Assembly: GCA_043811795.1 (NCBI GenBank)
Contig: JBDRMV010000116.1
Location: forward strand, 1-33,919
DNA length: 33,919 nt
DNA from: a bacterium
Lineage (GTDB): Bacteria; CG03
Reading direction: 5' to 3'
Below, piece after piece: positions 1 to 19,936 of the stretch. How positions within the stretch are numbered: position 1 is the stretch's first letter; every line of letters starts with the position of its first letter. The notes beneath the pieces were generated by a model. That model ran no database searches. It had not been told where the DNA came from and saw only the letters and a program-made list of their open reading frames with translations. The translations under genes and the position numbers were made by a program.

Positions 1-273
1 TTCCGACTATGAGTTAAGGGCAGTGCTTAACGGGGAGAATCAGCCGGCGGATGATGTGTTTGTGGATGACACGGACGAGCTGACGAATGACAATCAGGCG
101 ATGACGGCAGCTATGTTTTATGGCAATGAGAGTGGGGCAGCTGTGTCGTCAGCAGTCGGGAGTGAAACAAGAGGTCTGTGGTTCAGGATAAATACGCCGT
201 ATGAAATTACGGACACATCGGAGCACTCGATTTATGTGTCGATAATAGCGACGCAGGGAGGATAAGGAGGGAA
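1..273 (+). repeat. Direct repeat, copy 1 (copy 2 at 1118..1390)
   Basis: Hand alignment of 1..265 with 1118..1382 gives 29 mismatches (~89% identity). Both copies continue as taaggagggaa past the stop. Confidence 0.95.
2..265 (+). CDS. Secreted beta-rich subunit, paralog A (5'-truncated by window edge)
   Basis: Frame is open from base 2 (SDYELRAVLNGENQPADD...IIATQGG*). It is collinear with the 3' end of 798..1382 at offset 1117 with no indels. Confidence 0.85.
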   Translation, partial: SDYELRAVLNGENQPADDVFVDDTDELTNDNQAMTAAMFYGNESGAAVSSAVGSETRGLWFRINTPYEITDTSEHSIYVSIIATQGG

Positions 274-797: not shown

Positions 798-1382
798 ATG
801 AGTAGAAGAATGTTGATTGGGCTGGTGATGATGGTGACGTTTGCGGTGCTGGGTTATGCTTCCACGGATACGATAAGGCTGACGGTTACGGTGGCTCCGG
901 GAATAAATGTGGAGGTGTGGTATCTGGACTCGACTGCAGTCATGGATGTTTATGATTTCGGGTCGGATTTGCTGGCGAATCAGGCAACCCCGACGTTTGC
1001 GTCAATAACGGTGAAGAATGCGTCGATTGGATTAACCCAGGACTGGTACATCAGGGCATCAGATGCAATAGGTTCTGTGCAGGACTGGAATCTGGCGGAT
1101 ACCGTTACATCAGGCACTTCCAACTATGAGTTAAGGGCAGTGCTTAACGGGGAGAATCAGCCGGCGGATGATGAGTTTGTGGACACCGAGGACGAACTGA
1201 CGAATGACAATCAGGCGATGACGGCATCTGTGTTTAATGGCAGTGAGAACGGGGCATCAGTGTCGTCAGAAGACGGGTTTGACACAAGAGGGCTGTGGTT
1301 CAGGATAAATACGCCGTACGAAATTACGGACACGTCGGAGCACTCGATTTACGTGTCGATAATAGCGACACAGGCGGGCTAA
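798..1382 (+). CDS. Secreted acidic beta-rich protein, paralog B; candidate fimbrial/fibre subunit
   Basis: RBS aggagg upstream; Sec signal MSRRMLIGLVMMVTFAVLGYA; mature N-terminus STDTIRLTVTVAP with alternating hydrophobic residues; C-terminal beta strand HSIYVSIIAT. Confidence 0.75.
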   Translation: MSRRMLIGLVMMVTFAVLGYASTDTIRLTVTVAPGINVEVWYLDSTAVMDVYDFGSDLLANQATPTFASITVKNASIGLTQDWYIRASDAIGSVQDWNLADTVTSGTSNYELRAVLNGENQPADDEFVDTEDELTNDNQAMTASVFNGSENGASVSSEDGFDTRGLWFRINTPYEITDTSEHSIYVSIIATQAG

Positions 1383-1538
1383 GGAGGGAATGAGAAAATA
1401 AGAGATTAAGAGTTTGAGGTGATAGGTATATGTTGTGTGTGCGTGAAACGCGCAGAACACCACATAGAGAAATGAAAATAAGGAGTTAAATGTAGGTAAT
1501 TAAAAGAATTGAGAGATGATTATTAATTTTAGGAATTT

Positions 1539-3449
1539 ATGAAAAAGAGAGCCAGAATCTTTGCAGAATTGCTTGTCGTAGCAGGTCTGTTTATAAGAGG
1601 CCCTGCGTTCGGCTCTAATTCTGCTTCCGTGGCCCTGAAGATTATGGTTGATCCTTTTGAACCGTCAAGGATAACCGACTTCCAGGCGGGTTACGGCTCG
1701 GCTCTCGGCGAGGTTGATCTTAAATGGACCGCGCCCGGTGACGACGGGATAAAAGGCCAGCTCAGAGCGGGAGCGTATTTAATAAAATACGACAAAAAGA
1801 GTCCTGCTGATTTTGCGGAAGATACAACTTCCTGGTGGAAAAATGCGGGAAGATATTTAGTTGACAGTTCATGGATCCCGAATCCGCCGGGCACTGCCGA
1901 CACGAAAACGATAAACGCTTTTACGCATCAGGAAATTTACGACAGGGAAACATTTTATTTTGCCATTCAGTCAGTGGACAAAGTCGGCAGCGAATCTGTG
2001 ATTTCAGACATTGTTTCTGCCGTGCCGAGGTGGGATATAACGCCGCCTACGACGATTTCGGACCTCGTTGTTTCGTATAACGATAACAGAACAGGCGTTG
2101 TTCTTGAATGGACTGCGCCCAAAGATGTTTTCTTTCAGACGTATGAATCTAAAGTCGACGGCTATATTATAAGAAGGTCGACGGTTTCTCTCGGGGAACT
2201 TTCAGGCGTTGCGACAGCGTGGTGGAGCGCGGCGTCCGAAATTTCACCGCCAGAGCCCGCCGAACCCGGGACGGGAGAATCAATTGAATTGAATGACCTC
2301 ACGGGAGGCGTAACATATTATTTTGCGATAAAGAGTTTTGACGAGCAGGGCAATGTTTCGGAGATTGACACTCTGTTTACGGGGCGGGAAGGTATTTACA
2401 TAATGAAAGACGCGGCGACGCCGAACCGGGTTTCGGGAATTTGGGGTCAAATTGAAGGAAATAAATTCATAATTCACTGGTCCACCGTCGAAAAGAATAA
2501 CGACGGAACAACGGAGTGCGAAGACCTCGCGGGATATTATATAAGGTGTTCGCTGAATCCGTTTGACGCAGGAGTTATAACCGCAACGGTCGGCGCTCTC
2601 ACCACTTCGTACGAAACGTATTATTCGACAAATACTCCGGTTTATTATTATTCAATTACCGCTTTTGACGGCGCGTATCCGTGGATAAACGAGAGTGAAC
2701 TCTCAATGAGGATTGATTCTTCGGACGAGGTATCCCTCTGGCTCTGCTCGCAGAGAGCGGCGATAAGAATTCCGAAGACAGTTCAGGCAATAATGAGAAA
2801 AGAAAATAATTCTTACGGGGATAATATTGATATGGAAATTGAGCGGATTACAGGCGAGGAGAAGAGCAGGATTCTCTGCAGTTACAGGTTTGACGCGGTC
2901 AAGAACGTTTCAAAAGACACCGCCGGTAAATTTGTTTTCAGAAGGCCTTACGCCGAAATTCGGCTTTATTATTCGGGCGGGTCGGGTCCCGCCGCCCTGC
3001 AGGCGGAGGACAGTTATTCTATAATGTGGTATAATGGCAAAGAATGGCTCAAACTCGGCGGTGATGTTAATAAGAAGGAGGGTTTTGTATCCGTAAAGAC
3101 GGAGCGTATAGGGAAGTATCAGCTTCGCCGCTCAATCCGGGCGACGAAGTTCACTCTGGTCAATGGACCGATTCCGAAAATTATCACGCCGAATGGGGAC
3201 GGGCTTAATGATTTCTGCGAGTTCTTCTATGATAATCCGCAGAATTTTGCTCCTGCCGGAAAGATTTTTGACATAACGGGAGCTTTTGTTACGAATATGG
3301 CAAACGGTCCGTTGAGAAGCAATTCGTCGGGCTCTTTGAGGTGGAACGGATTTGACAGCTCCGGCAGGGTTGTCAGGTCGGGCATTTATATTTACCAGAT
3401 TGATGCGGGCGGGGAAGTTTATAACGGAACAGTGGTGGTGGCAAGATGA
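1539..3449 (+). CDS. Secreted fibronectin-III-like repeat protein with T9SS type-B-like (CHU_C/FlgD-Ig-like) C-terminal domain
   Basis: Signal peptide; repeated LxWTAP...Y.I...WW..A...P..PGT...YFAI.S.D..G..S.I FN3-like units; C-terminus PKIITPNGDGLND...KIFDITG...WNGFDSSGRVVRSGIYIYQI...GTVVVAR. Confidence 0.8.
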   Translation: MKKRARIFAELLVVAGLFIRGPAFGSNSASVALKIMVDPFEPSRITDFQAGYGSALGEVDLKWTAPGDDGIKGQLRAGAYLIKYDKKSPADFAEDTTSWWKNAGRYLVDSSWIPNPPGTADTKTINAFTHQEIYDRETFYFAIQSVDKVGSESVISDIVSAVPRWDITPPTTISDLVVSYNDNRTGVVLEWTAPKDVFFQTYESKVDGYIIRRSTVSLGELSGVATAWWSAASEISPPEPAEPGTGESIELNDLTGGVTYYFAIKSFDEQGNVSEIDTLFTGREGIYIMKDAATPNRVSGIWGQIEGNKFIIHWSTVEKNNDGTTECEDLAGYYIRCSLNPFDAGVITATVGALTTSYETYYSTNTPVYYYSITAFDGAYPWINESELSMRIDSSDEVSLWLCSQRAAIRIPKTVQAIMRKENNSYGDNIDMEIERITGEEKSRILCSYRFDAVKNVSKDTAGKFVFRRPYAEIRLYYSGGSGPAALQAEDSYSIMWYNGKEWLKLGGDVNKKEGFVSVKTERIGKYQLRRSIRATKFTLVNGPIPKIITPNGDGLNDFCEFFYDNPQNFAPAGKIFDITGAFVTNMANGPLRSNSSGSLRWNGFDSSGRVVRSGIYIYQIDAGGEVYNGTVVVAR

Positions 3450-3640
3450 GGAGCGTGAAGCGTGAAGAGAAAAGAGTGATGAGTAATGAGGGAAGAGTGA
3501 AGAATATGGAAAATAAAAAATTGAAACGATTTATTTTTCACACTGTACACTTCACATTTAACACTTCGCGCTTTGCACTTCGCGCTTTACACTTTACTCT
3601 TTACACTTTGCTCTTTACACTTTGCTCTTTATACGTCACG
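3446..3640. repeat. Heptamer repeat pair: purine (GTGAAGA-like, 3446-3503) and complementary pyrimidine (CTTTACA/CTTTGCT, ~3537-3640)
   Basis: Read directly from the sequence; the pyrimidine arm encodes the signal peptide h-region. Confidence 0.8.
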
Positions 3641-5116
3641 GTTTTTGCCGCTTTTGAAGATATCGGCGTCGGCGCACGTCCGATTTCAATGGCGAACGCT
3701 TTCACGGCGGTGGCGGACGACGTTCATTCGGTGTATTACAATCCTGCGGGTCTTGCGGGTTTAACAAAGTATGAAGTTGCCTCTTCCTACGGGAAACTTT
3801 TCTGGGGTCTTACGGATAATTCGAACATCGGGGTCAGTTTTCTGGCCGGCGCCGCTCCGGTCAGCCGGCTCAGGGGTGTTGTGGGTATTGGGATTAACCA
3901 GTTGAAACTTGACAATCTCTACCGGGAAGACCAGTACATACTGTCCTACGGACGGGAAATTAACTCTGGGAGGTTCGGGATGCTCGGCCTCGGTTCTTCT
4001 CTGAAAATTTTATCGCACAAGTTCGGCCGCGATGATTATACCGATAATGCAATAGATGAAACAGGGGTCTCTCATGACGGCGTCCCCGACCCTGTTTTTG
4101 CAAGCGGCCGCGGCAAAATGTCTTTTGCGGTTGATTTCGGCGTGATAAAAAATTATAATAATATGAAAATGGGTATTTCACTGCTTAACATAAATCAGCC
4201 GTCGGTCGGGCTGAGCGATAAAGGCGACAGGGTGCCGTTCGGGTTTAAGTTCGGTTTTTCGCATAAAGGAGAGAAGAGCATTCTCGCTTTTGAATTTTCA
4301 AGGAAGGACAGGGACAATATCCTGCGCAGCGGTCTGGAACTTTCTGTTTTTGAAAAGTTCGATTTCAGATGCGGTCTTGAAATCGGCAGCAGGGATTTTG
4401 CGAATATAAATTTTGGGTTCGGTTACCGGATTGAAAATAAATTCTTTATCGACTATTCTTTTATCCTTCCCACTATGGGGATAAAGGAGACATACGGGAC
4501 GCACAGGGTTTCTTTGAATGCGAAATTCGGGAAGAAGGTTCTTACGGAAAAAGCCCCGGTCAAAGAGCGCATAGAGGACGCCGAGAAACATTATATGAAG
4601 GGCGTTGATTTTTATCTTGAAGAGGACCTGAAAAATGCGGAGAAAGAGTTTAAAAAGGTTCTCGAAATAGACCCCGGCAACCAGCCGGCAATTGATATGC
4701 TGAAGGAATGCGGCGCGGGCGACGAGGCGAAGAAACCCGAGACGATGAAACCCGAAGAGAAAAGCGTGGAAATACCCGAAGAAGAAAAAGAAGCTCTCAA
4801 AAAGAAATATTTCGGAAGCGCTACGAAGTACTACTTAAAGGAAAATTATACAAAGGCGGTAGAAATGTGGGAGAAGGTTCTTCAACTGGACCCGTCTCAT
4901 GAGATTTCGCGGCAGAAAATTGAAAAAGCCGAAAAGATGAAAGCGCTCAAGGATAAAGCGGGCAAAGGGTCGCAGGTTGAATACCATTATATGAGGGGCG
5001 TTGATTTTTATCTTGACGAAGACATCGGAAACGCGAAGAAAGAGTTCAAAGAAGGTATTAAGATCGACCCGAACCACCGGCCGACGATTGATATGCTGAA
5101 AGAATGTGAGAAGTGA
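3506..5116 (+). CDS. PorP/SprF-PorV/PorQ-like outer membrane beta-barrel fused to C-terminal TPRs
   Basis: Mature N-terminus FEDIGVGARPISMANAFTAVADDVHSVYYNPAGL is the FadL/PorV-superfamily plug motif. Amphipathic strands end THRVSLNAKF and are followed by three TPR-like units. Start moved from 3446 to ATG 3506 because 3446-3503 is repeat DNA. Confidence 0.8.
   Translation: MENKKLKRFIFHTVHFTFNTSRFALRALHFTLYTLLFTLCSLYVTVFAAFEDIGVGARPISMANAFTAVADDVHSVYYNPAGLAGLTKYEVASSYGKLFWGLTDNSNIGVSFLAGAAPVSRLRGVVGIGINQLKLDNLYREDQYILSYGREINSGRFGMLGLGSSLKILSHKFGRDDYTDNAIDETGVSHDGVPDPVFASGRGKMSFAVDFGVIKNYNNMKMGISLLNINQPSVGLSDKGDRVPFGFKFGFSHKGEKSILAFEFSRKDRDNILRSGLELSVFEKFDFRCGLEIGSRDFANINFGFGYRIENKFFIDYSFILPTMGIKETYGTHRVSLNAKFGKKVLTEKAPVKERIEDAEKHYMKGVDFYLEEDLKNAEKEFKKVLEIDPGNQPAIDMLKECGAGDEAKKPETMKPEEKSVEIPEEEKEALKKKYFGSATKYYLKENYTKAVEMWEKVLQLDPSHEISRQKIEKAEKMKALKDKAGKGSQVEYHYMRGVDFYLDEDIGNAKKEFKEGIKIDPNHRPTIDMLKECEK
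4589..5106 (+). repeat. Intragenic ~122-bp duplicated TPR module (4589-4710 and 4985-5106)
   Basis: cattatatga(a/g)gggcgttgatttttatcttga...attgatatgctgaa(g/a)gaatg at offset 396, encoding HYMxGVDFYLxED...IDMLKEC twice. Confidence 0.9.
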
Positions 5117-5134: not shown

Positions 5135-5890
5135 ATGTTGAAGAAGATGGAAAACAAGAGATTTGTCGTTTGTTGTTTCCGTTCTATTCTTTACACTTTA
5201 CTCTTTACACTTTACTCTTTACACTTTACGATTTCTGCGGCTGAGGAAAAAAAGGTCTTTAAAAGAAACGTAAAGCTTGTTCTTCACAAAAAAGTTGAGT
5301 CGGTGAAAGTCCAGGGTTTTTTAGGGAGAGGGGAACGTCTTATGACGATTCCGATGCTGAAAAAAGGGAACGAATTTTACATAAATCTGAATCTCGGCGC
5401 CGGGTTTTATCCGTACAGATATCTGGTTGACGGGGAAAGATATATCACCGACCCGTACAACAAAGAAGACATCGTCCAGGGAGAGATTAAATATTCCCTT
5501 CTAAAGGTCTGGCCGGATAATCCCGAACTCTTTTTGAGCATGGCTTCCGATTTTATCGCAAAGAAGAAAGTTGAATGGGCAATTGATGTATATATCGAAG
5601 GGATTAAAACATTCCCGAAGGAAGTCAAACTCTATTCCGCCCTCGGGGAGTTTTATGAGGGGAAAAAATGGTTTGATTTTGCAGCGGACTGCTATCATTC
5701 GTATCTTGAGAATGACCCGGAAGATGCCGGAATGAGGTACAGGATCGCGAGTTGCTACGAGAAATTTTATCTTGATACTGACAAGAAAAAATTCGGGGAA
5801 TACGCGGTGTTTCACTGGGAAAAACTGTTCGGCACGAAGTACGAGGAAGAAGCAAAAAAACACATAAAAGAGTTGAAGAGTAAAGAGTGA
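5135..5890 (+). CDS. Exported CBM48/AMPK-beta glycogen-binding-like domain plus TPR protein
   Basis: Signal peptide ending TISA; VKVQGF...IPM.K....F...L.L..G.YPYRYLVDG...TDP.N matches the early-set/CBM48 pattern; TPR-like helices follow. Start is 5135 or 5147. Confidence 0.7.
   Translation: MLKKMENKRFVVCCFRSILYTLLFTLYSLHFTISAAEEKKVFKRNVKLVLHKKVESVKVQGFLGRGERLMTIPMLKKGNEFYINLNLGAGFYPYRYLVDGERYITDPYNKEDIVQGEIKYSLLKVWPDNPELFLSMASDFIAKKKVEWAIDVYIEGIKTFPKEVKLYSALGEFYEGKKWFDFAADCYHSYLENDPEDAGMRYRIASCYEKFYLDTDKKKFGEYAVFHWEKLFGTKYEEEAKKHIKELKSKE
5188..5229 (+). repeat. Perfect (TCTTTAC-ACTTTAC)x3 heptamer array
   Basis: Six heptamers read directly; complementary gtgaagagggaagagtgaa lies at 5113-5131. 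Confidence 0.9.
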
Positions 5891-6719: not shown

Positions 6720-7100
6720 GTGAGAAATAAAATTTTAATGGGCGGTGTTTTTTTACTTATTTTTGCTACAGGTATAAGAGCTGAACTTCCTCCTTGGCTT
6801 TCAGCAGTGCCAAAAATTGTTACGCCCGACGGCAACAACCACAACGATATATTTTATATTTTTTACAACCTCCCTGCTGATCCGGGAAGAGTGTCGGGAA
6901 AGGTTTTCAATTTGATAGGTATGAAAATGGCGGATTTCAGAAATGTCGGAGGAGAAGCCGTGGCAAAATATCCTGAGCCTGATGGAACTTGGGAAGGATA
7001 CCTTTACTGGGATGTCGGTTCCGCTCCGTCGGGTATTTATATTTATCAGATTGAATCGGGGAATGAAACTTATACAGGGACGGTTGTCGTCGCCAGATAA
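6720..7100 (+). CDS. Signal peptide plus stand-alone T9SS type-B-like CTD
   Basis: Signal ending GIRA; VPKIVTPDGNNHND...SGIYIYQIESGNETYTGTVVVAR is homologous to the C-terminus of 1539..3449. Confidence 0.8.
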   Translation: MRNKILMGGVFLLIFATGIRAELPPWLSAVPKIVTPDGNNHNDIFYIFYNLPADPGRVSGKVFNLIGMKMADFRNVGGEAVAKYPEPDGTWEGYLYWDVGSAPSGIYIYQIESGNETYTGTVVVAR

Positions 7101-7104
7101 GAAC

Positions 7105-9312
7105 GTGAAGAGGGAAGAGGGAGGAGGGAAGAACAAGAAATTAAATCGGGAAAAGTTTGAAATTTGTTGTTTCCGCTTTATTCTTTATTCTTTACTCTTT
7201 GCTCTTTACTCTTTACTCTTTACGGTTTCCGCTGACTTTGAAGACCTCGGATGGGGTGTCGCTTCCGCCGGCCTTTCCAACTCCGTGATGTTTTCAAAAA
7301 AGATTCCTGCCCTGATTTCCATAAATCCCGCCGCATCTTCCTTTACTAAAATGCCGGCGGTGTGTGTTGAATACGAGAATCTTTATCCTAATCTTTCCGA
7401 CGGCAGTAAACTTACGAGAAACATTATCACTTATTCGCAGCAGCTTGAGTCCGCGGGTTTCGGCGCCGGCCTTGAAAATTTCACTCTTGACGGCCTTTAC
7501 ACGGAAAGGATTATTCTTGTGAATTATTCACAAAGGTTAAAAAACGAATTATTCTGGGGCTTGAATTTCCGCCACCTCCAGAAAAAATACGGCAGAGATG
7601 ATTATACGGATAATGCGATTGGTCCAGGTGGTGTGGTCTATCAGCCCGCCAAACCGGACCCGCTCTTCAACAACAACGGTTTCAAGAAGAACGGCTACAC
7701 GTTTGACGTCGGTGTTTCGAAACTCGTCAGGGATTTCTGGCACCTCTCGGGCGCCGTTTCCTATCTGACAAGTCCTGATGTTTCTCTCGGCGGCGGGGAC
7801 AAAAGAAAACCTACTTTTACAATGGGCGCTTCTTTTGAGGACCGCCTTGTAACGGTCGGGAGCATATTTAGTTTTCACGACGGAGATTACAACTCCGGCA
7901 TTGGCTTTGAAAGGTCTTTGCCGGACAGGCCTTTTAAGGTAAGGGGAGGTCTTTCAATCGGGAACAGCCAGGTCCGGCTTTTGTCCGTCGGTTTCGGATA
8001 TGTGCATTCCGGCAGGTTTTTGGTGGATTATGCCTGGACGTATCCCCTTGTGGGTTTGAAAGAAACGGGCGGCCGGCACAGGGTTTCGCTTTCCATGTAT
8101 TTAAGGAAGGAAGAAGCGGAGAAGGAGGATAAAGTCGCCGCGCTTTCGGATTTGGAGCAGTATCTTGAGAAAGCCAGAGAGGCGTTTGCAAAAGAGGACT
8201 GGCTGACCGCGCTGTCCTACGGGAAAAAAGTTCTGGAACTTGAGCCCAAAAATGAGGAGGCGAACGAAATACTCTCAAAGTCCGTCGCTAATCTTCGCGA
8301 ACTTTCCAAACCGTTTATTACGGAGGGGTTTTATTTTATAGAAAAAGGCAAATTTAATATTGCCGAGGAAAAGTTCGACACTGCTCTTGAAATCAATCCC
8401 GAAGGCGACGACATAAAACAAATCTGCCTGAAAATTAAGAAAATAACAAGGATAATTCCGCAGGCGGCGGAGAAGGATAAAATTTCCCGTCTTTTAAGAA
8501 CGTCAGTGAATGCTTATATCAATGATGACGTTATGCTTGCTTTGAATTCCGCATTGTATGTTTCTCAGATTGATTTCACCGGCATTGGTTCGAAGTTCCG
8601 GGACCTCATGAAGAGCGAGTATCCTTCCCAGTACCAGCAGATTGCGATTGTCGCAGGGATGAATCTTGTCGAGCAGAAACTTTATGCTTCTTTGAAAAAC
8701 ATATATAATGCAAGATATGACCTGGCGATAATGGACTGCGATGATGTCCTTAAACTTGAGCCCGAAAATGTTCTGGCTATGACCCGGCTGGGTTCCGCTT
8801 ATTACGCTCTCGGTAACAAGGCAAAGGCGGTCAGCGTCTGGCAAAAGGCGCTTGAATACGAGCCGGATAACAAAGACATTCTGGATTTTCTCGGGATGTC
8901 GGGCGGGGCGATAAAGGATGTCTATGAAAAGAAAAAGGAATCGGAGTCCGCGGCGGAAAAGACGGTGAAGGACTCCTACCTGCGCGGCATCGCGGCTATG
9001 AAGAGAGGAGAAATTGAAAAAGCGAAAACGCTTTTTGAAAAAGCGGTTTCGATAAATGTCACTGACGGAGCATCGCTGGATTATCAGAAGAAGTCCTCTG
9101 CCAAACTCAGCGAGTGCGAGAAACAATTGGAAAAGAAGAGCGGGCAGGACATGAATATGATGAAAGTTTACTTCGGCAGCGGAATGTCGTATTATAAAAA
9201 CGGCGAATACGGAAAAGCGGTGGACGAGTTTGAGAAAGTTCTGAAAATCAAACCGGACCATCCGCAGTCAAAGAAAATGATTGACTTATGCCGCCAAAAA
9301 ATGAAAAAATAG
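7105..9312 (+). CDS. Second PorP/SprF-like beta-barrel fused to a long TPR array
   Basis: Signal ending TVSA; DFEDLGWG...INPAA; shares GRDDYTDNAI with the first barrel; last strand RHRVSLSMYL followed by ~400 aa of TPR-like helices. GTG 7105 chosen to avoid overlap with the CTD gene. Confidence 0.75.
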   Translation: MKREEGGGKNKKLNREKFEICCFRFILYSLLFALYSLLFTVSADFEDLGWGVASAGLSNSVMFSKKIPALISINPAASSFTKMPAVCVEYENLYPNLSDGSKLTRNIITYSQQLESAGFGAGLENFTLDGLYTERIILVNYSQRLKNELFWGLNFRHLQKKYGRDDYTDNAIGPGGVVYQPAKPDPLFNNNGFKKNGYTFDVGVSKLVRDFWHLSGAVSYLTSPDVSLGGGDKRKPTFTMGASFEDRLVTVGSIFSFHDGDYNSGIGFERSLPDRPFKVRGGLSIGNSQVRLLSVGFGYVHSGRFLVDYAWTYPLVGLKETGGRHRVSLSMYLRKEEAEKEDKVAALSDLEQYLEKAREAFAKEDWLTALSYGKKVLELEPKNEEANEILSKSVANLRELSKPFITEGFYFIEKGKFNIAEEKFDTALEINPEGDDIKQICLKIKKITRIIPQAAEKDKISRLLRTSVNAYINDDVMLALNSALYVSQIDFTGIGSKFRDLMKSEYPSQYQQIAIVAGMNLVEQKLYASLKNIYNARYDLAIMDCDDVLKLEPENVLAMTRLGSAYYALGNKAKAVSVWQKALEYEPDNKDILDFLGMSGGAIKDVYEKKKESESAAEKTVKDSYLRGIAAMKRGEIEKAKTLFEKAVSINVTDGASLDYQKKSSAKLSECEKQLEKKSGQDMNMMKVYFGSGMSYYKNGEYGKAVDEFEKVLKIKPDHPQSKKMIDLCRQKMKK
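7175..7223 (+). repeat. Seven TCTTTAC-like heptamers encoding the signal peptide h-region
   Basis: gctttat-tctttat-tctttac-tctttgc-tctttac-tctttac-tctttac; purine counterpart at ~7105-7132. Confidence 0.9.
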
Positions 9313-9341: not shown

Positions 9342-9571
9342 ATGAAACGTTCATGCCGGCAAGCCGTCACAAATTATGAAATGTAAATATATATGTTGTA
9401 GCATGCGAGCTTGCTCGCAAGATGAAAGCAAGCTTTCATGCTACAATGCGGAAATGAAAGCAAGCTTTCATGCTACAATGCGGAAATGAAAGCAAGCTTT
9501 CATGCTACATTGATGAGCAGTAATAGGGGTATTTACAGATGAAACGTTCATGCCGGCAAGCCGTCACAAAT
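9342..9571 (+). repeat. 33-bp exact direct repeats (9342-9374, 9539-9571) bracketing a REP cluster
   Basis: atgaaacgttcatgccggcaagccgtcacaaat occurs twice. Confidence 0.9.
9398..9509. repeat. GTAG-family REP doublet (REPIN-like) with tandem amplification of one arm
   Basis: GTAGCATGCGAGCTTGCTCGC (9398-9418), then three inverted copies in 32-bp units atgaaagcaagctttcatgctacaatgcggaa (9422, 9454, partial 9486). Confidence 0.8.
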
Positions 9572-9585
9572 GGGAATGAAAATCT

Positions 9586-9628
9586 AATCCCCCATTCCCC
9601 CTTTACAAAAGGGGGACAGAGGGGGATT
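9586..9628. repeat. Nested C5/G5 palindrome
   Basis: aatccccc-attccccctttacaaaagggggacaga-gggggatt. Confidence 0.7.
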
Positions 9629-9646
9629 TTTGGAATCTATTTACGG

Positions 9647-11032
9647 ATGAAAAAAAGCAGGAACAAAATCCACTTTTTGCGTTTTTATCTTTTTACCTTT
9701 TTGTTTTTTTGCGGTTTTACTTTTTCTTTCGCGTCGGTTCCGGATACCTCGGTCATTGAAAAGCAGGTTTCTTCTGTTCTTCAGAATGTTTTCAACATCA
9801 GGCAGTTTTCCGTTTCCGTAAGAATTGATGATTATGTAGAGATTATCAACATGGGCAAGGATAAGATGAATATTCTGCCGGGGGTCCCGATTGAGGAAAA
9901 GCTGATGGGCGCTCCGTCAAAACAGCTGGTCCAAAAATACAGGTTTTTGATAACGGTCGTTCTTCCGAGGAACGTTACGCTTGAAATGGAGCAGAGGGTC
10001 GAGCGTCTTTTGAAGGTCTGTTTGAGTTTAAAAGAAACCGATTCCCTGAAGATATTGAGAGAAGAATTTGTCAGCGCTCCGCCGGCCCCCCCCGCGGCAG
10101 AGGCGGAAGCGGTTTCTCCTCTTGCCGGTTTCGGGTTCAATGTTTTGAAATATTTTTCAAATCCCTCTAATATTCTGCTGGTAGCGGTTGTTTTAATAAT
10201 GTTTATTTTTCTTTTCGGGCCTCTGCGGTCTTTTATGAGATATGCGGCGACTTATTTTGCGAATGTTTCGCAAAAGGCGTCTCCTGAAACTCTGGAACTC
10301 GGCACCGGCGCTGTAAGGGGAAATCCCCTTGGGCCCGTCAATCTTCTCACTTCGCCCGAAGCGAAAGAGGCGAGCGGCGAAACAGCGGACGTCCCTTTTT
10401 CTTTTGTAAATGAAAAAAATATCTCAAACCTTGCTTTTCTCCTGCGTGACGAGGACTCGGAAAAAATCGCAAACATCGTAGGTTTCTTCAAGGAGCCGCT
10501 TATAGAAAATTTCGTCAGTTGTTTTCCCGAAGAAAAACAGTCGGATATAATGAGTTTCCTGGTGTATAAGAAGGAATTATCTTCGGATGGCATCAGGGGG
10601 CTGGAGCAGGAGATAAAGGAAAGGATTGATTACGTTTCGGGAGGGAAAGAGCGGCTGCTGAGGATGCTTGAGAATTCTTCCCGGCAGGTCCAGGAGCAGT
10701 TCCTGCAGCACATTGCCGACGAGGATCCCGTTCTCGCTACGGAACTGAGGAATTCAATCTTCCATTTTGAAGATCTTGCAAGGCAGGAAACATCCGTCGT
10801 TCAGACAGTCCTGAGGTTTGTTAATACGCGCGCGCTTGCGCAGGCGCTGCAGTTTTCCGACCCGGAAGTAAAGGATAGAATTTTCTCTATACTTTCGGAG
10901 GGCGCGCGGGATATTGTAACGGAGGAGCTTGAACTGTTGCCGGAGAATCAGACAGCTTCCCTGCGTGAGCAGAAGAATATCGTTGTCGTGGTAAGACGGC
11001 TGAAGGATGCCGGAACGATAGAACTCGGTTAA
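9647..11032 (+). CDS. FliF(RBM3)-like periplasmic domain + TM + FliG middle/C-terminal domain fusion
   Basis: Signal ending FSFA; IEKQVSSVLQNVF...FSVSVRID and RFLITVVL...EQRVERLLK...DSLKILREEF resemble FliF-C; TM NILLVAVVLIMFIFLF; PFSFV...LAFLLRDE (FliG-M); SGGKERL...IFHFEDL...VLRFV...LAQAL...RIFSILS...EQKNIVVVVRRLKDAGTIEL (FliG-C). The FliG part is high confidence, the FliF part moderate. Confidence 0.75.
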   Translation: MKKSRNKIHFLRFYLFTFLFFCGFTFSFASVPDTSVIEKQVSSVLQNVFNIRQFSVSVRIDDYVEIINMGKDKMNILPGVPIEEKLMGAPSKQLVQKYRFLITVVLPRNVTLEMEQRVERLLKVCLSLKETDSLKILREEFVSAPPAPPAAEAEAVSPLAGFGFNVLKYFSNPSNILLVAVVLIMFIFLFGPLRSFMRYAATYFANVSQKASPETLELGTGAVRGNPLGPVNLLTSPEAKEASGETADVPFSFVNEKNISNLAFLLRDEDSEKIANIVGFFKEPLIENFVSCFPEEKQSDIMSFLVYKKELSSDGIRGLEQEIKERIDYVSGGKERLLRMLENSSRQVQEQFLQHIADEDPVLATELRNSIFHFEDLARQETSVVQTVLRFVNTRALAQALQFSDPEVKDRIFSILSEGARDIVTEELELLPENQTASLREQKNIVVVVRRLKDAGTIELG

Positions 11033-11054
11033 AAATAGTGATTAGAAGAAATAT

Positions 11055-11219
11055 GGCGAGCGGTTTGTTGGCTCGGCATTGCCTTCCCACGCTTGAGGGT
11101 GGCTCGCTCCGCAGTCCTGCGGGGAGAAAGCAGAGACCCTCGGACTGACGGGCTTGTCAGGCAACGCCGTGCCTCCTGCGGAGATGTCGGTGAGCGTCCC
11201 CGCTGGCCAAACCGCGAGC
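11055..11219. other. GC-rich multi-stem structured intergenic element upstream of motA
   Basis: Outer stem gcggtttg/caaaccgc; cggcattgcct (11074-11084) pairs with aggcaacgccg (11159-11169); inner hairpin ctccgcag-tc-ctgcgggg. Confidence 0.5.
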
Positions 11220-11241
11220 AATTCGGTTGAGGTGAAATAAT

Positions 11242-11997
11242 ATGGATTTGATGACAATTTTGGGTCTTCTGGTGGGCGTGGCCGCGGTCTGGTTCGTTCT
11301 CGCTTCGGGCGGTATTATGGGCATGCTTTTTAATATTAACGCCGCGATTCTCGTCTTCGGAGGCGTTTTAGGAGCGACACTGATAACCTACCCCGGGCGC
11401 CTGATAAAAAGAATCCCGAAAGGCGTTTGGCTTATGTTTTTTCCGCTGCGAATTGATTTGCCGAGCGACATTATAAAGGTCTTTGAGACCTGTTCAAAAA
11501 AAATTCACAAAGAAGGGATAAGCACGGGTCTGCTTGAAATTATTCCGTCAAGGAACAAATTTTTTGTAAAGGCGATAAATTTCCTTGTGGACGGGTTTGA
11601 AGATGATTTTATAAGAGAAACAATGGAAAACGAAATTGATAATTTCAAAAAAAGACACAATCAGGCGGCGGATGTTTTTAAGTCGATGGGAGCTTACGCG
11701 CCGATTTTCGGCCTTCTCGGGACGCTTATCGGCGTTGTTCAGGTCTTGCAGAACCTGACCGACCCGGCGAGCATGGGCTCTTCAATGGCTATCGCCATCA
11801 CGACGACGTTTTACGGGATTTTTTCGACGAACTTTATTTTCCTGCCGATTGCAGGGAAACTTTCCGTTCAGACAAACAGGGAAACATTAATAAAAGAATT
11901 AGTCATAGAAGGAACCCTCGGCCTGAAGAAAGGCGAAATACCTTCTATTCTGAGACATCGGCTTCAGTCGTTCCTTGCCGATTATGAAAAAAAATAA
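11242..11997 (+). CDS. motA: Stator A subunit (MotA/PomA/MotP family)
   Basis: MDLMTILGL..., VFGGVLGATL, VDG, APIFGLLGTLIG, GSSMAIAITTTFYG, LPIAGKL, IEG; ~250 aa; gaggtg RBS. Confidence 0.92.
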   Translation: MDLMTILGLLVGVAAVWFVLASGGIMGMLFNINAAILVFGGVLGATLITYPGRLIKRIPKGVWLMFFPLRIDLPSDIIKVFETCSKKIHKEGISTGLLEIIPSRNKFFVKAINFLVDGFEDDFIRETMENEIDNFKKRHNQAADVFKSMGAYAPIFGLLGTLIGVVQVLQNLTDPASMGSSMAIAITTTFYGIFSTNFIFLPIAGKLSVQTNRETLIKELVIEGTLGLKKGEIPSILRHRLQSFLADYEKK

Positions 11998-12655
11998 ACC
12001 CGGCCCTGCGGGTCGCATCAAACAGCCGGAAAAACCGAAAGAAGGATCTCCTGTTTGGCTCACGATTTACTCCGACCTTATGACTAATCTGATGCTTTTT
12101 TTTCTTATGCTTTACGGGATTACCAGGATGAGCGTCGAAACAAAATCAACAATTCTTGAATCCCTCGCAATGCAGTTCAAGAATCCCGAGAAGCAGAAAG
12201 CCATTATGAAATCGTACGAAAAGACTGCCGCCGACATTGAAAAGTTTATGGTTAACGTCCGTGAAAATCCTGTCGTGGAAGAGGTGCTTGCGGAGCAGTC
12301 GGGGTACAAAATTCTTCTAAAAGCGCCCGTCCTTTTTCATTCGGCGCGTGCTCAAATCAGGGATGAATCAAAAATTCAGCTTTTAACGCTTGCGCAGTTT
12401 CTCGCCGCAATTCCGAATACGGTCGAGATTATCGGGCACACGGATGACATCCCCGTAACGGGAACGAAGTGGAAAAACAATTGGGAACTTTCTCTGGCAA
12501 GAGCCGAAAGCGTGAGGAATTTTCTCGTGTCTCAGGGGATAAAAAAGGAAAAATTCTGTATTGCGGGGTATGGTTCCAAGAGGCCTATTTGCCCGAACGA
12601 TAGCCAGGAAAACCGCCGCCGCAACAGGAGAATAGAAATAATTGTTTTGAAATAA
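11984..12655 (+). CDS. motB: Stator B subunit (MotB/PomB) with OmpA-like peptidoglycan-binding domain
   Basis: WLTIYSDLMTNLMLFF with the essential Asp (gac 12074-12076); GHTDD, NWELSLARA, NRRIEI; overlaps the motA stop. Confidence 0.92.
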   Translation: MKKNKPGPAGRIKQPEKPKEGSPVWLTIYSDLMTNLMLFFLMLYGITRMSVETKSTILESLAMQFKNPEKQKAIMKSYEKTAADIEKFMVNVRENPVVEEVLAEQSGYKILLKAPVLFHSARAQIRDESKIQLLTLAQFLAAIPNTVEIIGHTDDIPVTGTKWKNNWELSLARAESVRNFLVSQGIKKEKFCIAGYGSKRPICPNDSQENRRRNRRIEIIVLK

Positions 12656-12755
12656 TGGAACGCGCGCATCTGCGTAATTTAAATGAACCCTGATAGGAAT
12701 TGTATAAAAAATATTCGTATAATAGAAACCGCAATGATAAATAAAATAAAGGAAT

Positions 12756-12898
12756 AGGCGTATGCACATGAATCAAGTTGGTATATTAAACAGGGAAAAT
12801 CGGGTCACCTCTATTTTTTCTTACGATACAAAAGTAAAAAATAGAAGTGACCCATTTTCGCATTATAAGGCGATTACTGGAATCAAGTGCATACGCCT
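12756..12898. mobile_element. MITE-like element with terminal inverted repeats and target-site duplication
   Basis: TIR aggcgtatgcac/gtgcatacgcct; flanking direct repeat ataaaggaat at 12746-12755 and 12899-12908; internal IR gggtcacctctatttttt/aaaaaatagaagtgaccc. Confidence 0.8.
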
Positions 12899-12918
12899 AT
12901 AAAGGAATTTCCAACAGG

Positions 12919-14457
12919 GTGAACATAAAGAGGAGAATCATTTTAACGGCGGTTCTGCCGGTCGCCGGCGTTTTGATTGTTTCGCTTATAGCGGGAGATT
13001 TTTTCACGGGCTCTTTTGAAAAAAAATGGATAAACGCTCAACTTGAAAAAAGATACGAGAAAGTTGAAGTCATTTTCGACAGACATTTTTCAATTCTGCG
13101 GTCGCCGGAAAAGGAAATATTCACCGCTCTTGTAATGAAGATGCAGTCATGGGGGGAACTGAACAAATTTTTTATCCGTTTTTCGCCCCTTTATCCCCAA
13201 CTGGAGAAGATTTCAGTCTCCCGCGGAGATGACAATATCGCAGGGATTTCAAAACTTTCCGTAAATTCATTCGGGAATTTTCCGGTGAATGAAAAAACAA
13301 ATCTCAGCGATATCTTCCAGGTGGGCGGCATGTCTTATACGGCGTTTAAAATTGAAGGCGAAGACGGCTACGAAATTTCCGGAATTATAGGGCTTTCTTC
13401 TCTTTTTGAAAAAGCGGCAGGGTTTTCTTTCAGTCCCGGCGGTTCGGTAAAAATTTATTCCAGGGCTCCGAATTCCGAAGCGTCCGTCGGCGCTGCAAGG
13501 TCTTTCCCGCTGCTCAAAGGTCTGTGGTCCGTTGAATTCACGGATGATTTTACGGCCGTTTATAAGATGAGATCTAATTTCAGAAATATTTTTATATTGT
13601 TTGCCGCCGCGGTATTTTTTCTGATGTATATTATTTCGGTATCTTCCGCGCGCAGGATATCTTTCCGGCTGGCGGCCCTTCGCGGGGACGCTAATATATC
13701 CGAAAGCGAAGATGAAATATCCGTTATTTCAAAACAATTTAAGGAACTTCGCAAGACGCAGAACGAACTCCGCCGGCAGATAAGTTTGCAGGACGCCGTC
13801 GGCATCCTCGGCAAGAATGTTTCCATGATAGGCCATGAATTAAGAAATCCGCTGGCGGCGATAAAGAACGCGCAGTATTTTATTTCGTCGCAGTTGCCTG
13901 ATGAAATAAAAAAAGGTCTGGTGGGGAAACATCTGCAGATAATAAAAAACGAGATAAAATTAATTTCGTCAATGGTTGAGGATTTGCTGACCCTTTCAAG
14001 AGTTAAGCCGCCCGTGTACGCTGAATGCGACGTAAACGCGCTCATCAACGAGTCGGTCGATTTATTCGCGGCGGACACCCAGCTTATTGACTTTATTGTA
14101 AAACCCGGGAGAATTTCAAAAGTGCCGGCGGACGCTTCGGAGATAAAGCAGGTTTTCCTGAACATCATAAGAAATTCCTGCGAGGCGATTACGCCGCCCG
14201 GGGAAATAAAAATAGAAATTGGAGAACAGGAAAATTTTGTAAAAATCAAATTTACCGATACCGGCTGCGGGATACCGCCGGACAAGCAGGAAGAAATATG
14301 GAAACCCTTTTTCTCGACCAAGAGTTCCGGTATGGGCTTCGGGCTTTCAACCGTAAAAAGAATCGTGGAGGAAAGGCACAAGGGCAAGGCGGAGATTAAA
14401 AGCCTGCCCGGGAAGGGTACCGAAATAACGATTTATCTGCCGCAAAAGCAGGAATAA
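12919..14457 (+). CDS. Membrane sensor histidine kinase (HisKA-HATPase)
   Basis: Two TMs around a periplasmic domain; H-box GHELRNPL, N-box QVFLNIIRNS, DTGCGI, PFFSTK, GMGFGL. Start uncertain; GTG 12919 lies outside the MITE. Confidence 0.9.
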   Translation: MNIKRRIILTAVLPVAGVLIVSLIAGDFFTGSFEKKWINAQLEKRYEKVEVIFDRHFSILRSPEKEIFTALVMKMQSWGELNKFFIRFSPLYPQLEKISVSRGDDNIAGISKLSVNSFGNFPVNEKTNLSDIFQVGGMSYTAFKIEGEDGYEISGIIGLSSLFEKAAGFSFSPGGSVKIYSRAPNSEASVGAARSFPLLKGLWSVEFTDDFTAVYKMRSNFRNIFILFAAAVFFLMYIISVSSARRISFRLAALRGDANISESEDEISVISKQFKELRKTQNELRRQISLQDAVGILGKNVSMIGHELRNPLAAIKNAQYFISSQLPDEIKKGLVGKHLQIIKNEIKLISSMVEDLLTLSRVKPPVYAECDVNALINESVDLFAADTQLIDFIVKPGRISKVPADASEIKQVFLNIIRNSCEAITPPGEIKIEIGEQENFVKIKFTDTGCGIPPDKQEEIWKPFFSTKSSGMGFGLSTVKRIVEERHKGKAEIKSLPGKGTEITIYLPQKQE

Positions 14458-14638
14458 GTATGCACGTGCCAACCAACAATCTTTTCACCTTCTGGGGGGT
14501 GACAAGCGACGAGTGTCCGCCGGCGGCGGATGAGAGGAGCACAATCAGGGGGGGAAATCCCCCCTATTGAATCAAGCATCCGGGAATTACTTGTGTCCGT
14601 AAGGGTACAGGCGAGTGAGTAAGTATAACGGAGGGGCA

Positions 14639-15013
14639 ATGGATAAAAAAAAGATATTAATTGTTGACGACGATTTCAGTGTGCGGGAAACGCTCGGGGA
14701 TATTCTGCGTTCCTGCTCTTATGAGGTTTTTGAGGCGGCCACCGGCGCCGAGGCGGCTAAACAGGTTGAGCTGGAGGAATTCGATTGCGTAATTGTTGAT
14801 TTGCGCCTGCCGGATGCGACCGGACATGAAGTCATAGAGAAAATCTCCGGTAGAGTAGAAAAAAACAAAATTATTATCATCACGGGATACGCTTCGTCCG
14901 AAGTGCTTTCAAAAGCGCTGCTTGATGCGGAGTATTTTCTGCTTTTGAAACCCGTTACGCCGGAGCAATTATTGGCGGTTGTCCGGAAAATTGCAACCGG
15001 CGGAAAAAAATAA
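14639..15013 (+). CDS. Single-domain response regulator (CheY-like receiver)
   Basis: ILIVDDD, VDLRLPD, IITGY, LLKP; ggagg RBS; no output domain. Confidence 0.9.
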   Translation: MDKKKILIVDDDFSVRETLGDILRSCSYEVFEAATGAEAAKQVELEEFDCVIVDLRLPDATGHEVIEKISGRVEKNKIIIITGYASSEVLSKALLDAEYFLLLKPVTPEQLLAVVRKIATGGKK

Positions 15014-15014
15014 A

Positions 15015-15800
15015 ATGGCTGAAGAAGCAAATTGGAATGTTCCATACGGCAATTTAATGACGATTCTTATGATATTTTTTCTGCTCCTTTACGCTTTTAC
15101 GTTTCTCACGGGCAACGTCAATTACGAAAGAGTCGTCGCTTCGCTTTCCGCCGGTTTCGGAAAAACCACGCCCTTTAAGGAGGTTGCTCTCGCGGAATAC
15201 CTTGAAGATTACTTTTCAAAGAAACAGGGTTTTCTCAGAAAACTTCAGATTGATGCCGACAGAATAAAACTTATTTTCAACATACCGATTTTTTTCAAAA
15301 AAGGGAGCACTGAAATTAAGCCCGCGGCGGTCAAAATTTTGGATGATATCTGTCTGGTGATGCTGGACATACCTAATAACATTATCATAGAGGGTTATTC
15401 GACCGAGGAAGCGGGGCAGAATGAGATGCTTATTTCAGCAGGCAGGGCTTTGGGAATCGGGAAGTTTTTCATTGACAAAGGTATCGACCCGTACAGAATA
15501 GTAATCAAAGGGTGGGGGAGCAGCCGTCCGTTTGCCACCGAATCCGACAGAAAAAACAACATCCTCAACAACAGGGTGGAAATAAGCATTCAGCGCGCCG
15601 TCTCTATCGCAATGCCCCCGACAAGCGAGAAATTACAGAGGATGAAGGAACTCCATTTTTACGGCAATTATTACTACGGGCAGGGGGATATTAAAAAGGC
15701 GGAGGAATATTTCGAGAAAATTCTTGAAATCGACCCCGCTCACTGGAAAGCGAAACAAATGATAAGAAAAATCAAAAAACAAAAAAGGGGTCAGCTCTGA
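15015..15800 (+). CDS. Atypical MotB paralog (Asp->Asn, degenerate OmpA domain, C-terminal TPR)
   Basis: WNVPYGNLMTILMIFF; IEGYST in place of GHTD; ISAGRA; NNRVEI; C-terminal GNYYYGQGDIKKAEEYFEKILEIDPAHWKAK. Confidence 0.8.
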   Translation: MAEEANWNVPYGNLMTILMIFFLLLYAFTFLTGNVNYERVVASLSAGFGKTTPFKEVALAEYLEDYFSKKQGFLRKLQIDADRIKLIFNIPIFFKKGSTEIKPAAVKILDDICLVMLDIPNNIIIEGYSTEEAGQNEMLISAGRALGIGKFFIDKGIDPYRIVIKGWGSSRPFATESDRKNNILNNRVEISIQRAVSIAMPPTSEKLQRMKELHFYGNYYYGQGDIKKAEEYFEKILEIDPAHWKAKQMIRKIKKQKRGQL

Positions 15801-15842
15801 TTTTTTTAATAAGCTGCCTGTGGAAAAAATAGAACTGACCCC
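15787..15842. repeat. GGGGTCAG...CTGACCCC palindromic doublet spanning the gene junction
   Basis: ggggtcagctctgattttttt / aaaaaatagaactgacccc; same core as the IR inside the 12756-12898 MITE. Confidence 0.7.
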
Positions 15843-19157: not shown

Positions 19158-19221
19158 ATCCGGATTCATGCTGTTTGTCATTAGCGGCGGATACGGAGGA
19201 TACGGAAAGGAGGTAAAATAA
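19144..19221 (+). pseudogene. Stub of a third GT-C copy
   Basis: atgaagaaaattaaatccggattcatgctgtttgtcatt matches the first 39 nt of the 17316 gene with 4 mismatches, then diverges and stops after 25 codons. Confidence 0.6.
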
Positions 19222-19229
19222 AATTTACA

Positions 19230-19925
19230 TTGCTGATGCCTACGCGTAATGAGATTGAAGGGTTAAAGGAAATCATGCCGCGGGTCAAAAAAGAATGGAT
19301 AGACCAGATTATTGTTATAGATGCGAATTCTACCGATGGCACGATAGAATATGCCAGGGAACATAACTATACGCTGGTATTGGAGAAACGCCCGGGCGGG
19401 GTCAGGTATGCCCTGCCGGAAGTAATGGATAGGATAAAGGGAGACGTGGTTATAACTTTCAGCCCTGATGGGAACTGTATCCCGGAACTTATTCCCGATT
19501 TAATAAAAAAAATGGAGGAAGGGTATGATATGGTTATTGTTTCCCGTTATGCTGCAGGGGCGAAAAGCTATGACGACAGTATTATAACTGCTTTCGGGAA
19601 CTGGTTATTTACGACGTCCATTAATATACTTCACGGCGGCAGATATACTGATACGATGGGTATCTTCCGCGCTTATAAAGCGAACCTTTTCAGGGATTTG
19701 GAACTGGATAAAGACGGGGGCTATTCAATGGCAGAGAAAATATTTCGCATAAATGTGGGCTGGGAACCTCTTTTATCAGTCAGAGCCGCCAAGAGGGAAT
19801 TAAAGATTGCGGAAATTCCGGGCGATGAGCCTGCGAGGTCGGGCGGAAAGTCAAAATTGAGAATATTCAGGCACGGTGCGGCGCACCTTTTTCAGGTTTT
19901 TTGGGAGGTATTTTTCTGGCGGTAA
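19230..19925 (+). CDS. GT2 glycosyltransferase (Dpm1-like polyprenyl-phosphate sugar synthase)
   Basis: PTRNE, IIVIDANSTDGT, GYDMVIVSR, YTD...FRAY, EIP...R.GGKSKL; the true start may be ATA at 19218. Confidence 0.8.
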   Translation: MLMPTRNEIEGLKEIMPRVKKEWIDQIIVIDANSTDGTIEYAREHNYTLVLEKRPGGVRYALPEVMDRIKGDVVITFSPDGNCIPELIPDLIKKMEEGYDMVIVSRYAAGAKSYDDSIITAFGNWLFTTSINILHGGRYTDTMGIFRAYKANLFRDLELDKDGGYSMAEKIFRINVGWEPLLSVRAAKRELKIAEIPGDEPARSGGKSKLRIFRHGAAHLFQVFWEVFFWR

Positions 19926-19936
19926 GCAAATGGGGC

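Follow-up and report, generated by a model that had tools for sequence, protein, structure and literature searches.

A candidate donor-strand fibre with a type IX-like surface anchor in a bacterium with an outer membrane

Three kinds of fibre are known to rely on donor-strand exchange, namely the chaperone-usher pili, the TasA-like and archaeal fibres, and the WxL/Elr pili of Bacillota, the last of which were first reported in October 2026. Here we describe a gene locus that we judge rather likely to encode a further donor-strand fibre, which would be anchored by a C-terminal domain (CTD) and a barrel protein in a bacterium that has an outer membrane. The locus reaches into the start of contig JBDRMV010000116.1 of assembly GCA_043811795.1. 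The window, by which we mean the whole stretch of DNA that was analysed, comprises 33,919 nucleotides (nt) of this contig on its forward strand. It is contig C116 of genome G000, a 1.74-Mb draft in 161 contigs with a completeness of 92.55%, and some relatives carry the NCBI name Elusimicrobiota. Our proposal draws on three complementary classes of protein that are present at this locus and at related ones: large proteins that end in the body of the putative fibre subunit, free subunits that have both an N-terminal strand and a body, and FN3-containing adaptors that have a strand only, together with an anchor signal.

Three complementary protein classes in a conserved module

The subunit gene that lies entirely within the window (copy C, 798..1382, + strand) is an open reading frame (ORF) for 194 amino acids (aa), to which the ORF itself and an AlphaFold 2 (AF2) model assign a signal peptide, an N-terminal amphipathic strand and an Ig-like body. 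Behind the signal-peptide-like stretch, residue 22 (nt 861) begins STDTIRLTVTVAP, and residues 22-34 (861..899, + strand) constitute the proposed donor strand; the cleavage sites of this protein and of the adaptor were read by eye. Searches of Pfam and NCBIfam returned no family for the 194-aa subunit. A word-index search yielded 12 relatives, and a profile search of 1.84 billion representatives yielded 646 clusters at E ≤ 1e-3, of which 161 also pass E ≤ 1e-10 and 10 pass E ≤ 1e-30. Members of this family occur in two architectures, either as free, signal-peptide-bearing proteins about 175-220 aa long or as the C-terminal domain of large proteins, which measure up to 2,819 aa in the profile-search list and up to 3,414 aa in the related genomes. 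The family is present in 17 of 26 genomes of the phylum (E ≤ 1e-8) and in none of 15 genomes from other phyla (E ≤ 1e-3), and a scan of genome contigs located a single locus.

Among 125 aligned free members, residues 26, 28, 30 and 32 are large and hydrophobic in 95, 98, 96 and 83% of cases, respectively, compared with 1-10% for the positions between them, and strand and body are both kept in all 125. Judged from this alignment, the subunit N-terminus is a predicted amphipathic strand that starts about four residues past the predicted cleavage site. Mutual information between the strand columns and the body couples residues 32 and 34 with residues 76/77, 172 and 190, and is uninformative for residues 24-30 because these are too conserved. 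One relative from the profile search (P0075, 499 aa) has two tandem subunit domains behind an unrelated N-terminal domain; neither this protein nor the other natural tandem or fused forms revealed a groove through a self-complemented design. Another unusual form is a 398-aa protein in genome G016 (contig C42; L038 7911..9107), in which an N-terminal strand and a subunit domain are fused straight to a CTD. Its neighbours are barrels and unrelated secreted proteins, and from its domain order it looks like a one-piece subunit that carries its own anchor.

Structure prediction of the subunit depended on the depth of the alignment. With 12 rows, AF2 gave an unusable model with a predicted local distance difference test (pLDDT) value of 44.6, and with 125 rows it gave an Ig-like sandwich with a pLDDT of 89.5 and a predicted TM-score (pTM) of 0.80. 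DSSP assigns nine strands to the latter model, the first of which begins at residue 38, and assigns none to residues 22-36 although the pLDDT there is 85-93. The N-terminal strand is unpaired in this predicted monomer. When the model was compared with the PDB by using Foldseek, the four matches at E ≤ 1e-3 were the TasA fibre (8aur), TLP-1a (9ikj), CS20 pili (8eht) and the CfaB trimer (4y2l), and these were followed by FimG, CS17, the Pyrobaculum bundling pili, CupE, Csu and the Sulfolobus thread. The Foldseek scores are middling and the TM-scores are low (0.26-0.46). An earlier reading of this DNA from its letters alone, hereafter the original prediction, had likened the N-terminus to that of class 5 pilins such as CfaB, and the predicted fold does resemble those of donor-strand pilins, among them CfaB. 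In an unbiased VIA search, donor-strand fibre subunits made up 19 of the best 50 matches, and all ten of the rows that begin at or before model residue 25 are donor-strand fibres. A homotrimer prediction (the mature subunit in three copies with the 125-row alignment, run without controls) scored 0.26 and 0.31 against a mark of 0.42 and is evidence neither way. A sequence profile search of the PDB with the subunit returned nothing meaningful, the best match being a designed Pizza protein at E 0.0058.

On its upstream side, the locus extends beyond the window onto contig C109. The last 141 bases of the reverse complement of C109 are identical to the start of the window, and because of this exact overlap the two contigs most likely abut; the break between them was probably caused by a repeat. 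Followed in the direction of the window, C109 first encodes a large protein, cut at the contig end, in which an FN3 domain precedes a subunit-like domain at the C-terminus. A MerR gene comes next, then genes for two membrane proteins of the Wzy_C (O-antigen-ligase-like) kind and for a TPR protein, and after these the gene of a secreted protein of 300 aa that has two Ig-like halves (the two-Ig protein, or 2IG), a divergent subunit copy (187 aa, 54% identical), and the 5′ part of subunit copy B. The 3′ end of copy B lies in the window as an 87-aa open-ended frame (2..265, + strand) that is 83% identical to residues 108-194 of the 798..1382 product, its 5′ part being C109:479..3 on the minus strand. 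The locus contains at least three tandem subunit genes. The original prediction had pointed upstream for more copies and for a tip adhesin, and C109 indeed holds two more subunit copies, one of them continuing as copy B, as well as a tip candidate, the large protein that ends in a subunit domain. Its remark that neither an usher nor a chaperone is present holds for the window itself, but the window starts inside the locus, and the two-Ig protein on C109 is a chaperone candidate.

Downstream of copy C is the candidate adaptor or terminator (1539..3449, + strand), an ORF for 636 aa in which sub-threshold domain matches indicate, behind a signal peptide and a strand, FN3 domains and, after an unassigned middle part, a CTD resembling those of the type IX secretion system (T9SS). 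The N-terminal strand, residues 26-39 (1614..1655, + strand), reads SNSASVALKIMVDP and is followed by the linker FEPS and the first FN3 domain; it is kept in all three close orthologues (P0163-P0165). The FN3 match of the adaptor scores 23.6 bits versus a cut-off of 25. The putative C-terminal sorting or docking domain, residues 545-636 (3171..3446, + strand), matches both CHU_C, a type B CTD (E 7.3e-5, 23.3 bits versus a cut-off of 27), and the NCBIfam model Por_Secre_tail, a type A CTD (20.8 bits versus a cut-off of 23), in each case below cut-off. The next gene (3446..5116, + strand) encodes a barrel protein of the outer membrane, of the PorP/SprF-PorV kind and with TPR repeats at its C-terminus, an assignment that draws on conserved gene order and on a match to Pfam PorP_SprF (PF11751) at 42.8 bits, above the cut-off of 22.3. 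The match to the NCBIfam model PorV_fam, at 57.7 bits, falls short of the cut-off of 90.

We then looked at the neighbourhoods of family members in related genomes, where genes were marked by using a hidden Markov model (HMM) of the subunit, and phmmer for the CTD, the barrel and 2IG. We identified 13 subunit-adaptor pairs in ten genomes of the phylum, and the usual gene order is a large protein ending in a subunit domain, 2IG, one to three free subunits, sometimes a second 2IG, the adaptor, and one or two barrels. The 2IG gene is on the same contig in 11 of the 13 cases; in G000 it is on the abutting C109, and the thirteenth contig begins at the subunit gene. A barrel gene stands behind the adaptor in 10 of 13, the remaining three contigs ending there, and the two genes overlap by 4 nt in 7 of these 10, an overlap that the window shows (start at 3446, stop at 3449). 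A fused 'tip' protein is encoded upstream on the same contig in 8 of 13, and on a neighbouring contig in G000 and G001a.

Strand and body are divided among the proteins of this module in a regular way. Free subunits are matched by the HMM from position 4-24, a range that covers all but three copies cut by a contig end and the L038 fusion. In all 19 fused proteins, HMM coverage begins at position 46-53, and the subunit domain lies at the very C-terminus of the protein, with 1-4 residues left behind it. There it directly follows the last strand of an FN3 domain, and for this reason the fused proteins have no free strand. The subunit HMM matched none of the 13 adaptors, all of which have a strand-like stretch between the signal peptide and the first FN3 domain, with a proline-rich linker after the strand in 12. 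The numbers of subunits also vary. One locus of genome G001 contains three subunit copies in tandem, several other loci contain only one free subunit, and in many genomes the fused proteins far outnumber the free subunits.

Likeness between subunit and adaptor strands

The original prediction rested on a pattern, [IV]xLx[VI]xVxP, shared by the N-termini of the mature subunit and of an otherwise unrelated FN3-CTD protein. Both STDTIRLTVTVAP and SNSASVALKIMVDP do fit this pattern, and the subunit HMM gives no match to the adaptor. The adaptor strand, which the prediction had allowed might belong to the adaptor's own first domain, lies outside the first FN3 domain and is set apart from it by a proline-rich linker. 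Against a background of all six-frame ORFs of the genome of at least 80 aa (6,520 ORFs, 1,135,780 residues), the pattern has 11 matches, four of which are at this locus (three subunit copies and the adaptor). Because this pattern had been fitted after the fact, we built a position-specific scoring matrix (PSSM) from subunit residues 24-34 of 114 distant family members, leaving out the kin of this genome. The adaptor strand ASVALKIMVDP scores 6.9 bits and is the best match in front of FN3. This score is equalled or exceeded at 359 of 1,070,580 positions (3.4e-4), which corresponds to a chance of about 0.01 for the approximately 28 positions between the adaptor signal peptide and the first FN3 domain. 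At the level of sequence, the likeness of the two motifs in the window appears to be above chance and weak on its own, and the case from the window alone is thin.

The related loci add to this case. In 12 of 13 adaptors, the best match of the subunit-derived PSSM before FN3 coincides with the proposed strand, with an offset of three residues in that of G008, and the tail frequencies across adaptors range from 6.5e-6 to 1.2e-3. The best ungapped 8-mers between N-terminal regions score on average 23.5 for proteins of the same locus versus 18.1 for proteins of different loci, a same-locus mean that is reached by 18 of 100,000 permutations, or by 47 of 100,000 after trimming 12 residues. Near-identical cognate pairs include DVYLYVTP and DVYLYVRP (G016), WEDGFTIT and WGDGFTIT (one G001 locus), and ADVTYSV and ANVTYTV (one G009 locus). 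A comparison within G001 and G009, which is independent of kinship between genomes, had the cognate adaptor as the best match in five of five cases (three in G001 and two in G009, one of them by a single point), for which the chance is about 1 in 108. These tests used anchored regions because a cognate test on the whole N-terminal 110 aa, which gave 156 of 100,000 permutations and was dropped, was noisy and often had its best matches in signal peptides.

Genome G001 has three separate loci (L018, L023 and L036) with three strand types, TVNLTVTV, DGFTITL and NVTLNVT, each of which is accompanied by a matching adaptor. Their strands suggest that the three loci are orthogonal systems in one cell.

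Export genes and the remainder of the window

Candidate parts of a type IX-like export apparatus were seen in the genome. A 1,714-aa frame resembles SprA in four matched segments (best E 1.1e-19, below cut-off), and the PorU model gives 13 partial, sub-threshold matches, all to its C-terminal CTD-like end, one of which is the adaptor in the window.

Behind the first barrel, a gene at 5135..5890 (+ strand) encodes a TPR protein, either secreted or in the membrane, that weakly matches AMPK1_CBM; it is kept behind the barrel in the sister genome, and its membership of the system is uncertain. It is followed by a 126-aa protein (6720..7100, + strand) that consists of a signal peptide and a CTD only (CHU_C E 3.1e-5, below cut-off), and by a second PorP-like barrel with a long TPR region (6943..9312, + strand; phmmer E 1.4e-32 with the first barrel), the true start of which is probably near 7105 by comparison with the sister genome. 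The pair of CTD-only protein and second barrel is kept in G001, G004 and G008 and may serve as a plug, as a decoy or as a spare site of anchorage.

Positions 9539..15800, which follow directly on the second barrel, encode a FliG_C protein (497 aa), MotA and MotB, then a histidine kinase with a response regulator, and a MotB_plug-OmpA-TPR protein, and this gene order recurs in the sister genome (L018 9270..12000). Neither FlhA (FHIPEP) nor a flagellin N domain was seen in the genome, which is 92.55% complete. The region is an orphan stator and FliG_C module in an organism that apparently lacks flagella, and this module may drive type-IX-like export or something else.

The two Wzy_C genes and the TPR gene lie between the tip gene and the 2IG gene on C109 (L005, 2199..6065, minus strand), and likewise in G009 (L006). 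Wzy_C-family pilin glycosylases exist, and by analogy with them these Wzy_C proteins may glycosylate fibre proteins. Farther downstream in the window, membrane glycosyltransferase-like genes occupy 15820..22563 and 25135..27225 (PMT_2 twice, GT2, Wzy_C-TPR and YfhO), and interspersed with them are genes for a type IV pilin-like protein (N_methyl, 19979..20452) and for a prepilin peptidase (23327..24091).

Proposed assembly, alternatives and known fibres

We propose that the subunits, of about 190 aa, would cross the inner membrane by Sec and would be capped in the periplasm by 2IG, the best chaperone candidate. Each subunit would donate its N-terminal strand to the body of its distal neighbour, and a polymer would form in this way. 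At the far end, the terminal subunit body of the large FN3-rich protein would accept the strand of the first subunit, and such a tip could only accept because its subunit body has no free strand. At the near end, the FN3-CTD adaptor would give its strand to the last subunit, and because it has a strand without a subunit body it would only donate and would therefore stop growth. The adaptor CTD would then fasten the fibre to the PorP/PorV-like barrel that is encoded just behind it. One possible route across the outer membrane would be a SprA-like translocon, with the CTD protein carrying the parts that have no CTD.

The original prediction had likewise placed the adaptor strand at the base of a fibre docked on the barrel. 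That interpretation is supported in part, in that the predicted fold is pilin-like, that more copies exist upstream, that the adaptor strand lies outside FN3, that all 13 adaptors have a strand only, and that pairs of CTD and barrel have a precedent; the insertion of the strand is a step that we infer. A broader formulation would make these loci a new, usher-free class of donor-strand pilus among bacteria that have an outer membrane, a counterpart of the Elr/WxL pilus with a new two-Ig chaperone family, tip-first joining, a strand-only FN3 terminator, a CTD that passes through a SprA-like translocon onto a cognate barrel, and orthogonal strand 'codes' that coexist. We regard this formulation as tentative, and as somewhat less probable than not in its entirety.

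The most serious alternative is that the shared strand is a handle for a common third party, such as 2IG, the barrel or the SprA-like translocon, and that the subunits are single Ig-like proteins that do not polymerize. Likeness between the strands of neighbouring genes would fit co-evolution with one locus-encoded receptor equally well, a 2IG gene and a barrel gene are always in the locus, and the fold scores that stand beside the inferred strand insertion are middling. We nevertheless consider this explanation unlikely, as it leaves unexplained the strandless subunit body at the very end of all 19 large proteins, the adaptor strand without a body in all 13 adaptors and the tandem subunit copies, and as the Foldseek matches below E 1e-3 are donor-strand fibres without exception.

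It is less likely again that the adaptor strand tethers large surface proteins one-to-one to the barrel, with the small subunits acting as spacers, caps or decoys and no long fibre being formed. The excess of fused proteins over free subunits in many genomes would suit such docking, as would the direct fusion of a subunit domain to a CTD at L038 and the loci that have a single free subunit. The retention of strand and body in all 125 aligned free subunits does not, and neither does tandem duplication, both here (at least three copies) and in G001 (three copies). The likeness could also be generic or due to chance: a beta-rich secreted protein of any kind may begin with an alternating strand, and the subunit would then be a complete, self-contained Ig-like domain and the adaptor strand would belong to the fold of the adaptor itself. 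This reading could appeal to the weakly alike pair of the window and to the occurrence of a relaxed pattern in other FN3 proteins, but is very improbable given the near-identical cognate strands at several loci, the five of five best cognate matches within genomes, the PSSM matches on the proposed strand and the proline-rich linkers (each in 12 of 13 adaptors), and a strand that is unpaired in the monomer model.

Several observations weigh against the donor-strand fibre that we favour. The PSSM score of the window's adaptor is only the 221st of 6,520 when ORFs are ranked by their best score. The window's own pair is generically alike, with a best 8-mer score of 13 that ranks 13th of 13 adaptors, or 10th after trimming. 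When one locus per genus is used (seven loci), the observed value is reached by 227 of 5,040 permutations without trimming and by 515 of 5,040 with it, and the cognate signal therefore rests on a few loci. An alternating-hydrophobic pattern in its strict form occurs in 7 of 13 adaptors versus 1 of 62 other FN3 proteins, and the relaxed forms, with 12 of 13 versus 22 of 62 and 9 of 13 versus 21 of 62, do not discriminate; the 22 matches in other FN3 proteins are mostly in signal peptides. The route through the outer membrane is unexplained because subunits and tip carry a signal peptide only. GldM was not found in the genome, where the GldM control gave no match anywhere and GldK, GldL and GldN were not searched for. 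Finally, searches of Pfam, NCBIfam, PDB profiles and the genome found no sequence kinship to known pilin, WxL, PapD or usher families.

Specifically, neither the usher (PF00577, for which a control matched in E. coli) nor the PapD-like chaperone (PF00345, PapD_N) had a match at E ≤ 0.01 in the genome, of which 92.55% is covered. The WxL family (PF13731) had none at E ≤ 0.1, with a control that matched in Lactococcus, and it is absent from the 25 most-matched of the 29 Pfam families of the 125 subunit members; an Atlas feature score of 0.84 for WxL is a lead only. The 2IG protein has only weak matches, to FixG_C and fn3_5. When the two-Ig family was the query of a word-index search, 56 close relatives but no connection to DUF916 emerged, the DUF916 model (WxLIP_PGBD) matches 1 of 14 two-Ig proteins at E 0.091, and a PDB profile search with the two-Ig protein reached EfmWxLIP1 at E 0.43. 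No C-terminal membrane helix is visible in the two-Ig alignment.

The elrABCDE WxL locus of Enterococcus faecalis is reported to build a pilus by donor-strand exchange in which ElrA, with a C-terminal acceptor domain and no strand, forms the tip; ElrB, with a donor strand only and LPxTG, is located at the base as terminator; and ElrE (DUF916/DUF3324) is a membrane-anchored chaperone. In the screen described in that preprint, the Elr/WxL system was found in Bacillota only, in 48 of 4,698 genera screened (bioRxiv 10.64898/2026.10.17.759780). As the preprint presents that pilus, its four roles and its logic (tip acceptor, pilin, strand-only base with an anchor, and two-domain chaperone in the operon) match those proposed here, again with no usher. 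Unlike the Elr/WxL pilus of that account, the system described here belongs to a host with an outer membrane, has a T9SS-like CTD and a PorP-like barrel in place of LPxTG and sortase, and includes a chaperone candidate that appears soluble; kinship to WxL and DUF916 was not found in our searches.

With the class 5 chaperone-usher pili (CFA/I with CfaB and CfaE, CS17 and CS20), the system appears to share an Ig-like pilin fold with an N-terminal extension and a tip with a C-terminal pilin domain. It differs from them in having no usher or PapD_N match in the genome, in a sequence identity of 5-14%, and in a base that is strand-only with FN3 and a CTD. TapA is reported to act by strand complementation (PMC10151520), and to the extent of that report the TasA/TapA fibres of Bacillus subtilis are similar in this respect. 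Unlike these fibres and the archaeal bundling pili and threads, which have no barrel or CTD partner, the subunits here lack a Peptidase_M73/TasA match in Pfam and belong to another host envelope. In TLP-1, which was obtained from pond water by CryoSeek, the N-terminal strand is described as completing an Ig-like domain that belongs to a different protomer, and a Flavobacteriales bacterium is the source of its nearest predicted relative (PMC11494351). Our subunit has 10-12% identity to TLP-1a and TLP-1b and no PDB profile match to them, and TLP-1 is presented in that report as an 8-nm tubule with an n+4 donor and without a known locus.

The proposed anchor also has a relative. Type B CTD proteins are reported to bind cognate PorP-like 14-stranded barrels of the FadL family for surface anchorage (PMC9143113), and, as in that account of T9SS type B cargo, the CTD protein here adjoins a PorP-like barrel, for which PorP_SprF is above cut-off. 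Unlike the type B cargo described there, the host here is outside Bacteroidota, the CTD reaches neither the type A nor the type B cut-off, the barrel has a TPR tail, and the N-terminus of the cargo copies the pilin strand. Type V pilus subunits are lipoproteins matured by proteolysis; no such lipobox was seen here, and type V folds are not among the structure matches listed. In type V pili (Porphyromonas FimA and Mfa1, with the anchors FimB and Mfa2), subunits are reported to strand-exchange, and a base anchored in the outer membrane to stop elongation (PMC8512630).

A full-text literature search returned nothing that combines Elusimicrobi* with donor strand, and among the matches listed for type IX secretion, donor strand and PorP (best 10 of 464) there were only reports on type V pili or on T9SS alone. 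Donor-strand fibres are a known kind of structure, and what is different here is that the subunit family and the chaperone candidate are unnamed, that the terminator or anchor is of a new kind, and that the phylum is one without a described case. The new element would be a donor-strand fibre of a deep-branching phylum with an outer membrane, without an usher, whose terminator is coupled to a CTD of the type IX kind and to a PorP-like barrel. If our proposal is true, this assembly logic arose or spread far beyond the known groups, and strand-exchange fibres would for the first time be connected with surface anchoring of the type IX style. The specificity of the strand code could be tested across the three loci of one genome. 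The same mechanism would account for the attachment to the cell of hundreds of very large FN3-rich proteins with this unnamed domain at their end.

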